DNA of 64,000 nucleotides from a virus. Its lineage: Duplodnaviria > Caudoviricetes. The translations under genes were made by a program, and so were the position numbers. The DNA is taken from the IMG/VR virus record IMGVR_UViG_3300031134_000001, positions 192,001 to 256,000 of that record; one strand, given 5' to 3'. This document shows positions 551 to 41,743 of the stretch, piece after piece; positions within the stretch are counted from its first letter, which is position 1; each line of letters begins with the position of its first letter. The notes under the pieces were generated by a model. It saw only the letters and a list, made by a program, of their open reading frames with translations, was not told where the DNA came from and did no database searches.

Positions 551-796
551 ATGCTTAAATCCATTACGACCTTTACCAAAAGTTCCATCGCTTCGCTTAA
601 CTCAGCCCAGCTTAAAGCTTGTAACGATTTAGGCAGGGCAATTACAGGTGTGTGGAAAGTAAACGGCGATATTCGGGTAGTCCAGGTGGACAACAAAGAT
701 TACCCGATGTATTACTGGAACGAAGACAAGTGGGTTAGTTTTACGCCCCTTGCTTTGACACCAACAGATTCCATAAAACGTACTGATGAGTCGTGA
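551..796 (+). CDS. hypothetical protein (81 aa)
   Basis: ATG at 551 right after tRNA-Thr; the ORF-track start at 476 lies inside the tRNA. Confidence 0.65.
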   Translation: MLKSITTFTKSSIASLNSAQLKACNDLGRAITGVWKVNGDIRVVQVDNKDYPMYYWNEDKWVSFTPLALTPTDSIKRTDES

Positions 797-869
797 AAGT
801 CGACGCCTACTTCGGTAGGTAAGGTTGCAAATCCTTCGAAACGCTCTTAGAGCGTCTACGATATCGGGA
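771..869 (+). ncRNA. type I hammerhead ribozyme with expanded stem II region; predicted cleavage after C856
   Basis: Core CTGATGA (783-789), G790, C837, GAAA (838-841), stem III ACGCTC/GAGCGT, GTC triplet (854-856), stem I CGTA/TACG (779-782/857-860). Confidence 0.8.
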
Positions 870-1195
870 CTTAACAGTGGCATCTCGTTTCTCTGTCGCC
901 TCCCCTTTAAGGGCGGGTTTGATGGGGTTTAGCTTTAACCGATGATAAGGTTAATGAAACTGTACGACTATCGTTGTTTGCTCTAGCCTCCTATCAAGAG
1001 ACTTTAGTAAATGGGTTAGTAAGTTGTATGCAATCTGTCGGGTTTAACGTTAGCCAAAAGCAGCGGAGATCTCGGCTAAAATGCATGCAGCGCGTAGGAG
1101 ATCGATTGGTTGTGGCCACGGTCAGTCGGTGGTTCTACGTTAGTTGTGTGGGAACGAGCAGAAGAGTCGCGGCGTAGAGAACCGCTGCTTTTTTG
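857..1195 (+). ncRNA. candidate large structured ncRNA (copy A)
   Basis: No credible ORF; helices ACAGT/ACTGT and AAAAGCAGCGG/CCGCTGCTTTT followed by a U-tract; long-range 865-872/1164-1171 pairing. Confidence 0.55.
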
Positions 1196-1239
1196 CTTGG
1201 TTCCTTTTTTATGCTGTCAAATTTTTAAGGGAATACAAA

Positions 1240-4360: not shown

Positions 4361-4503
4361 TTATGTTGTCTGTTTTTCATGAATGATGTTTCCGTAGTAC
4401 ATTTTATGTCGAAACTTACGTGGTTTCATTTTGACAGACAACTGTATAGCGAGGACACTATCGTGACGTTCAATGTAACAGCCTTAAACGCGGAGCGTGA
4501 ATA

Positions 4504-4770
4504 ATGAATCCTCATTTTCACATGAAGCCAGAAATGTCGTCCTTGCGGGTGTATTCTGCCCCCAACGGCTACGAAGAACGCCGTCCGTATGACGGCATCA
4601 TCATGGTAAACCACTTAACTGACACCGTCGTTTATCTGCACGGCGCAATCGGTAAGGTTGATCGTGGCACGTACACCATGGCTTTGAAACTGCTGCGCGA
4701 TAGCGGCGTGAAGAAAGTCATGTACGAACGTCGCGGTGAAATGAAGACCATGCATTTGGCAGAGCTGTAA
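4504..4770 (+). CDS. hypothetical protein
   Basis: 88 aa ORF with GGAG upstream. Confidence 0.7.
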   Translation: MNPHFHMKPEMSSLRVYSAPNGYEERRPYDGIIMVNHLTDTVVYLHGAIGKVDRGTYTMALKLLRDSGVKKVMYERRGEMKTMHLAEL

Positions 4771-41257: not shown

Positions 41258-41289
41258 ATACCACCATCTTATGTAAACAATGTTCCCCT

Positions 41290-41640
41290 AGCGTGACTTA
41301 CCGTGTAGCGTTAAGGTTAAAATGTGTCACCAGGCCCCAGCAGAGCCAACTTCGGGATAAACTCACTCAGTCGAATGAGGTTGGGGCGAAACAGGTGGTA
41401 AACGGTACGGGCCTTCTTCACAGAGCCAAGCTGTCATTAGGAATTTTCGGTCGAGCGCTGACGCGCGATTATTCGAGTGTGCAACGGCAACCCAGATTGG
41501 ATGATAGTCCTTCGTACTGCGAAGTCACGTTATCTAGTAAGGGTTGTCGGTGCGTAGGTTTCATGTGCCTACAAACTTCTTCGCGGCGCAGGTGCCGGGG
41601 TAGAGTTTTGCGACATGATGCTGTTTTCCTAAGTTTTTCT
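41290..41640 (+). ncRNA. candidate large structured ncRNA (copy B)
   Basis: Intergenic ~480 nt; helices GCCCCAGC/GTTGGGGC and CGGCAACCC/GGGTTGTCG; 8-bp long-range CGTGACTT/AAGTCACG pairing. Confidence 0.55.
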
Positions 41641-41643
41641 TTA

Positions 41644-41681
41644 GCACAGGAGCCTTCGGGTTCCTGTGTCTTTTTATGCCG
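41644..41681 (+). terminator. hairpin-TATGCCG element
   Basis: CACAGGAGCC-TTCG-GGTTCCTGTG then TCTTTTTATGCCG. Confidence 0.8.
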
Positions 41682-41743
41682 TCAATTCTTTTTTTGGTTA
41701 ATTCTTATGAGTCAACCCCTCGATAACCCTTACAGAGAACACC

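Follow-up and report, generated by a model that had tools for sequence, protein, structure and literature searches.

The window analysed comprised 64,000 nucleotides and corresponded to bases 192001-256000 of a 271,026-bp phage genome with direct terminal repeats from IMG/VR (G000). The capsid protein of this phage matched the phiKZ-type major head protein family. An array of tRNA genes (Gln, Asn, His and Thr) was located on the plus strand, with the end of tRNA-Thr at position 536. Just downstream of this array, a small open reading frame (ORF), a hammerhead-like element and a structured non-coding RNA (ncRNA) were found (Table 1); the hammerhead shares its strand with the tRNAs and the neighbouring genes. 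Near-identical DNA was present in straw, phyllosphere, dairy, wastewater, soil and marine metagenomes, and the stretch was contained as a whole or in part in 20 sequencing runs. These were available as contigs, and the one run labelled RNA-Seq probably represents DNA.

Table 1. Features of the hammerhead locus and of the downstream RNA in related phages. Positions refer to the window unless another record is named.
Feature	Position	Strand	Remarks
ORF	551-796	+	81 amino acids; last codons overlap stem I, core and hairpin 1
Two unpaired A 5' of stem I	777-778	+	based on conservation between lineages
Stem I, 5' strand CGUA	779-782	+	pairs with 857-860
Catalytic core C3-A9, CUGAUGA	783-789	+	invariant except N7
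G10.1	790	+	invariant; C837 or C804 as possible partner
Hairpin 1	791-803	+	3-bp stem, loop U-GNRA-GU (UGAAAGU)
Junction nucleotides	804-805	+	C804 invariant, alternative partner of G790
Hairpin 2	806-819	+	5-bp stem, UUCG loop; variable arm, apparent spacer
Hairpin 3	821-836	+	AAGG/CCUU stem, U.U mismatch, U-A pair, GCAA tetraloop 827-830
C11.1 and G12 A13 A14	837-840 (C837; GAA 838-840)	+	invariant in all lineages
Stem III	841-855 (841-846/850-855, loop UUA 847-849)	+	A15.1-U16.1 plus 5 bp
C17	856	+	predicted cleavage 856/857, as expected from hammerhead chemistry
Stem I, 3' strand UACG	857-860	+	pairs with 779-782; predicted 5' end of released RNA
Structured ncRNA	857-1195	+	conserved blocks; intrinsic terminator at end
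ncRNA in G002	L007 1600-1925		shared blocks
ncRNA in L129	4614-4960		shared blocks
ncRNA in L147	5651-5790		shorter version
ncRNA in L158	~1478-1110	-	

The sequence was re-read against the original prediction, and the core, stem I, stem III and the GUC17 triplet were all present at the predicted positions. The layout is that of a type I hammerhead with an open stem I (window 779-860). The catalytic CUGAUGA had also been described as the last codons of the ORF, which ends in ...ACU GAU GAG UCG UGA. The core does supply the T-D-E codons, but the stop codon UGA (794-796) lies within the loop of hairpin 1. The ORF was found solely in G000 and near-identical relatives: a protein search detected no homologue in the related phage G002 (see below) or in four fragmentary relatives, a peptide-pattern scan detected none in IMG/VR, and no PHROG or Pfam family was assigned. 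In G002, no ORF enters the hammerhead. A functional tie between the hammerhead and the ORF was not found, the latter being absent from G002, and the overlap is lineage-specific.

Known RNA families were searched with Rfam 15. At gathering thresholds, only tRNAs were detected in the window, and none of the hammerhead families RF00163, RF00008, RF02275-7 and RF03152 reached its gathering score. The best hammerhead model was RAGATH-1-hammerhead (RF03152) with 22.2 bits versus a gathering score of 56.3. This was the only hammerhead model that aligned at E<=10; RF00163 gave no match on the window stretch at that value. No Rfam hammerhead model matched the four relatives at E<=1, and the RAGATH-1 model did not match G002. 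The RAGATH-1 model has a stem II of a single G-C pair, which may also be the case here, and it shares with the present element an A-rich stretch 5' of stem I, which has 5 bp in the model. The stem II loop of the model comprises ~5 nt, whereas here 44 nt are found and treated as an insertion. Furthermore, the hairpin upstream of stem I in RAGATH-1 could be aligned here only with mismatches and non-standard pairs, in a flank that is unalignable between lineages.

The frequency of chance matches was estimated with a permissive type I descriptor, in which CUGAUGA had to be combined with pairing of 10.1 and 11.1, with GAAA within 4-80 nt, with a non-G N17, and with at least 4 bp in each of stem III and stem I. 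In the 271-kb genome, the site in the window was the sole match on either strand. The same descriptor gave 5 matches in 200 first-order Markov random genomes of equal size, i.e. ~0.025 per genome. This value is suggestive for a single genome but insufficient for a scan of many windows; relatives were therefore sought.

A search with the capsid protein yielded five IMG/VR relatives, one of them with a complete genome (G002; 272,470 bp, capsid 77% identical), in which the element is located at L007 1504-1603. Starting from the gene 3' of the ncRNA, a near-identical relative (L125/L126) was reached, and the G002 version of this downstream gene led to a third lineage (L129), a 269-kb JGI genome identical to IMG/VR record L141 over the element region. 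Pattern and covariance-model searches yielded two further lineages. The first, L147, was detected with a looser DNA pattern, in which N7, the stem of hairpin 1 and everything after it were left free, in a 224,654-bp IMG/VR phage with a capsid 39% identical. The second was the cultured Burkholderia phage FLC9, detected with covariance model R2 (core plus stem-II domain). The FLC9 element (LC667451.1 137812-137946, minus strand) is part of a gap of 507 nt for which no annotation is given; a single base separates its start from the stop codon of gp133. In addition, a micro-variant of the element was found in a dairy-metagenome contig. Altogether, the element was found in at least five giant (jumbo) phage lineages with capsid identities down to 39%.

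Other searches were less productive. Blastn of 540-1240 against the phage collection gave no match. Strict exact patterns (U at N7, UUGCAAA loop) run on IMG/VR and metagenomes recovered G002 plus chance matches in coding DNA only, and are too narrow, since both N7 and loop 3 are variable. Model R1, built from a single sequence, matched the relatives only locally and lost stems III and I, due to long stem III loops. A pattern made from the ncRNA blocks detected G002 only, and a scan of prokaryote genomes gave six matches, none of which was upheld by the covariance model. Models R2 and R3 did not match phiKZ, PhiPA3, Psa21, AgentSmith or RP12; both describe this three-hairpin stem-II domain, so that ordinary hammerheads may be present in these phages. 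Two weak matches in Ralstonia phages violate core rules and were rejected: in RSL2 (17 bits), position 10.1 is U, N17 is G and stem I contains a mismatch, and in FLC1-1B (13-16 bits), U replaces both C3 and A14. The RSL2 site (AP014693.1 194395-194486, minus strand) is a degenerate look-alike with CUGAAGA, a GAAA-capped third hairpin and GAAA, and may be a decayed relative or a chance match.

A full structural comparison of the lineages was scripted. CUGANGA, G10.1, C11.1, GAA and the A15.1-U16.1 pair were invariant, and G12 A13 A14 followed by this pair (A841-U855 in the window) was the same in all five lineages. Variation of the core was confined to N7 and N17, both of which are free in the hammerhead consensus. 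N7 was U, C (in L129, and in contig X8 as 787 T>C) or A (in L147), giving the core variants CUGAUGA, CUGACGA and CUGAAGA. N17 was C in three lineages (G000, L147, FLC9), A in the other two (G002, L129), and never G. The unpaired AA abuts the 5' strand of stem I in four lineages and is shifted one base further upstream in FLC9; an A directly after the 3' strand of stem I (861 in the window) was present in all five.

The helices differ in sequence and keep their pairing. Stem I occurs in five versions, all paired (CGUA/UACG, GGUA/UACC, UGGUA/UACCA, GCUAU/AUAGC and GCUCU/AGAGC). It is 4-5 bp long in every lineage, and the bulged extension of stem I that had been predicted is not conserved. The versions of stem III are ACGCUC/GAGCGU, ACAUCUC/GAGAUGU, ACAUCUC/GGGAUGU, a 10-bp helix in L147 and AGGGGGA/UCCCCCU in FLC9, with loops of 3, 5, 16, 19, 9 or 122 nt depending on the lineage. 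The longest of these loops is a strongly folded 122-nt insertion in L147 (5520-5641). Large additions are thus accommodated by two of the three arms in this family.

Compensatory changes were counted between G000 and G002/L129. On both sides, 8 of the 23-24 pairs were changed and none was broken; stem III contributed four pairs with two-sided changes versus G002 and L129. When the same 16 substitutions were placed at random on the 46 paired bases, none of 2,000,000 placements kept all pairs, and a mean of 10.4 pairs was broken. L147 and FLC9 show further compensatory changes in stems I and III. For the stem-II domain, 98.5% of the cells were paired in an alignment made by the model itself, versus 26-59% for slid partners, and the covariation score was reached by 0 of 500 shuffles. 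The number of independent covariation events is small, since most compensatory changes sit on a few deep splits. Unaided minimum free energy (MFE) folds of the G002 and L147 sequences gave the hammerhead layout.

These data bear on the reading that the site is a chance match to the hammerhead consensus in or beside an ORF. The core indeed overlaps the end of the ORF, the best Rfam score is weak, and a genome-wide scan of many windows is bound to yield chance motifs. Nevertheless, only ~0.025 matches are expected per genome, and four other lineages, which do not have the ORF, have kept the element through compensatory changes. The comparative data thus refute a chance origin, which was given practically no weight.

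The three hairpins originally described in place of stem II were confirmed in the window at the places given in Table 1 and are conserved in the five lineages. The basal pair of hairpin 1 changes from U-A to C-G in four lineages (compensatory), and the tetranucleotide of its loop is GAAA, GGAA or GCAA, i.e. GNRA in every lineage. C804 is followed by variable bases (G, C, AU or G). In the stem of hairpin 2, three pairs are altered on both sides between lineages. Its loop is free (UUCG, GCAU, GAUAA or 10 nt) and the hairpin as a whole ranges from 13 to ~59 nt, the longest arm (~59 nt) being that of FLC9; hairpin 2 looks like a spacer. The hairpin 3 stem AAGG/CCUU is invariant in four lineages, and FLC9 has GGG-GUAAAG-CCC instead. 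Loop 3 is UUGCAAAY (8 nt) or UGAAAAU (7 nt), with a GNRA in four lineages and a GNRA-like GUAA in FLC9. In total, the domain comprises 48-91 nt. No resemblance of the insert to other modules of the G000 genome was found. From these alignments, the three-hairpin stem-II domain is considered a family trait and not an accident of the G000 genome.

Hairpin 3 had been likened to the T-arm of a tRNA, for which a 5-bp stem and a 7-nt T-loop are expected. The hairpin has a 4-bp stem and a loop of 8 or 7 nt, and GNRA is the feature that loops 1 and 3 share, not a T-loop, so that this comparison is unsupported. A tRNA-like element was not detected in 771-869 by ARAGORN or the Rfam tRNA model. The two GNRA loops are candidates for the tertiary contact between stem I and stem II on which natural hammerheads depend at physiological Mg2+. 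The sequence AAGU of loop 1 could also form a 4-bp pairing with ACUU (869-872) in four lineages; in FLC9 the corresponding sequence is not adjacent. The GACUUA block that would take part is alternatively able to pair with an invariant UAAGUU (1020-1025) inside the ncRNA.

G790 and C837 are invariant and able to pair, and the helix that would continue beyond this pair is replaced by the three hairpins. Two topologies of the junction fit all sequences. In topology A, which corresponds to the original prediction, G790-C837 would close a four-way junction. In topology B, G790 would pair with C804, making hairpin 1 a 4-bp stem II, and hairpins 2 and 3 would be placed before G12. As both C804 and C837 are invariant, the sequences are compatible with either partner of G790. 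The nearest-neighbour MFE structure pairs G790 with C804 and favours B by ~10 kcal/mol over a four-way junction closed by a single pair, in an energy model that takes no account of the hammerhead core.

Aptazymes are engineered, artificial allosteric hammerheads with an aptamer grafted on stem II. The present element shares with them a multi-helix domain at the end of stem II that is joined to the core by a very short bridge; the natural domain differs in having GNRA loops and no recognisable aptamer. It is conceivable that the hammerhead is regulated in a similar way, with the domain as sensor and G10.1 toggling between its two possible partners, C804 and C837. Cleavage and release of the ncRNA would then be gated by a ligand, by a protein or other factor of phage or host, or by the way in which the downstream RNA is folded. 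The precedent of the aptazymes would fit this proposal, as would two mutually exclusive partners of G790 that are invariant in five lineages, and a hairpin 3 stem and two GNRA loops that are conserved well past the needs of pairing. Regulation is nevertheless considered unlikely: the domain could not be matched to any known family of aptamers or riboswitches, the GNRA loops are more simply explained as tertiary docking elements, and an arm of 13 to ~59 nt (hairpin 2) is unlike a tight ligand pocket.

The structured ncRNA of ~340 nt was located directly 3' of the element in every lineage. It begins with the 3' strand of stem I, followed by a few variable bases and then by conserved blocks. In G000 it ends with a terminator spanning 1169-1195 (stem 1169-1188 plus a U tract). 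The blocks GACUUAACAGUGG, AAACUGUACGAC and AGUAAGUUGUA are shared by G002, L129 and L147, and the order GACUU(A/U)ACAGUGG, AAACUGUACGAC, AGUAAGUUGU(A) is the same in these three. In FLC9, related blocks are present only in part and in a different order. RNAalifold predicted 22 pairs in the ncRNA that are kept through two-sided changes; no Rfam family matched it.

The constant physical linkage of element and ncRNA could also be expected of a hammerhead-shaped fold without catalytic activity, which would serve as the 5' domain of a ~420-nt RNA or would stabilise the upstream transcript at its 3' end. This was judged very improbable, as the catalytic nucleotides are all invariant among phages with capsids only 39% identical, and an architectural junction is not expected to keep 13 unpaired core bases. 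Moreover, N7, N17, the loops and the helix sequences, all of which are free in active hammerheads, do drift, with N17 never being G.

A second RNA of the window (41272-41681) aligned weakly to 857-1195. It keeps the first helix of the ncRNA with a compensatory change (ACAGU/ACUGU to ACCGU/ACGGU). It has no hammerhead at its 5' side and is preceded by a protein gene and a stretch containing TATG. Just past the terminators of both RNAs, the motif TTTTATGCYGTCAA was found (window 1207-1220 and 41672-41685). It also occurs in G002 (L007 1930-1943) and, as TTGTTATGCCGTCAA, in L129 (4974-4987). The motif is conserved across lineages, lies ~20-30 nt 5' of the start codon of the next gene, and looks like a phage promoter. 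Near-identical relatives diverge abruptly past the ncRNA terminator (from window 1207 versus L125 3049 on; also contigs of runs X11 and X27). Beyond this point, these relatives have a tRNA-Ile where the promoter-like motif would be, and identity in the downstream gene falls to only 61%. The pattern resembles a recombination breakpoint located where the RNA module ends.

The upstream context of the ribozyme changes between lineages. It consists of tRNA-Thr plus the ORF in G000 and the near-identical L125, of a tRNA followed by ~230-450 nt of non-coding DNA in G002 and L129, of an ORF ending ~95 nt away in L147, and of the stop codon of gp133 in FLC9. tRNAs near the element are absent in L147 and FLC9. 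The flank 5' of stem I is unalignable between lineages, and the ncRNA downstream is conserved.

Two observations were made within the tRNA arrays. First, the spacer between tRNA-His and tRNA-Thr (window ~340-455) is conserved in G002 (L007 ~1160-1290) and L129 (~4400-4512), with the sequence GGAUCGACCGCGRGUCGC ... AAACCCACCC; in L129 it ends 10 nt 5' of the hammerhead. It is probably another small RNA. Second, ARAGORN called a permuted tmRNA with the tag AGSVAEPA* at L125 1247-1709, overlapping a tRNA-Ser. This call may be spurious; the equivalent region of G000 lies 5' of the window start.

Taken together, the element is interpreted as a true self-cleaving ribozyme of the type I hammerhead class, with a sub-architecture that has not been described before (probability roughly 0.78). 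Apart from stem II, the sequence-level tests of the class were passed; the element departs from known members in its Rfam scores and, probably, in having no simple stem II, and is therefore placed as a structural variant of the hammerhead class. The original prediction of a variant hammerhead that separates an upstream transcript from a structured RNA gains comparative support from the invariant core, the covarying helices, the constant ncRNA on the 3' side and the changing 5' context. Given this constant 3' and variable 5' context, the ribozyme is read as a cutter that would free the ncRNA from read-through transcripts and set its 5' end. Its most likely role, judged from these alignments, is to cut the front end of the ncRNA free.

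The proposed sequence of events is as follows. The ribozyme would be transcribed as the tail of an upstream RNA, which may comprise the tRNA array and the small ORF, protein genes or other RNAs. After folding, it would cut behind N17 (C856) and stay with the upstream product, which would then end in a 2',3'-cyclic phosphate. In hammerhead chemistry, the downstream product carries a 5'-OH; the ~340-nt structured RNA would be released with such a defined 5'-OH end, starting with UACG. A stem I of 4-5 bp should permit quick dissociation of the products. The GNRA-capped arms would most likely replace loop II and dock on stem I or a neighbouring helix, thus holding the active fold.

Compared with known type I hammerheads (RF00163), the element has the same core, the A15.1-U16.1 pair and H at N17, with stem I open and stem III closed, and it shares their frequent association with phages. 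It differs in having a conserved domain of three hairpins, two of them GNRA-capped arms, where a stem II hairpin is usual, and in a stem I of 4-5 bp that has no internal loop through which the common loop-loop contact could be made. In the accessible literature and in Rfam 15, no branched and conserved stem II was found for any natural hammerhead; a precedent in subscription literature is possible. Perreault et al. (2011, PMC3088659) describe active natural hammerheads with a stem II of 1-2 bp, as well as pseudoknots and small core insertions. According to a 2017 review (PMC6155905), the discontinuous mammalian hammerhead in the Clec2 3' UTR carries a huge insertion in helix I. The tolerance of a very large insertion in one helix is common to both systems (122 nt in stem III of L147); the helix I insertion of Clec2 is unstructured or variable, whereas the elaboration of stem II is conserved here. 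The HDV-like theta ribozymes are reported to adjoin phage tRNA genes (Kienbeck et al. 2024, PMC10879173). Like the present element, they are a small self-cleaving class in phages, and defining the end of a neighbouring ncRNA would be analogous. They belong to another class and are described as associated with tRNAs, whereas the present element lies 5' of a non-tRNA RNA and is not tied to tRNAs.

Descriptor and covariance searches that are built on a simple stem II under-count hammerheads. With this element, nature provides a case in which one can ask how much remodelling the core tolerates on its stem II side, and whether arms capped by GNRA loops are able to stand in for the loop-loop contact. 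Since one member is present in the cultured phage FLC9, cleavage and function are directly testable. If the domain does act as a sensor, the element would be the equivalent in nature of the stem-II aptazymes, and a rare example of a natural self-cleaving ribozyme under allosteric control. For the jumbo phages, the element marks the 5' boundary of a conserved, unannotated RNA of ~340 nt, and would give this RNA a defined start.
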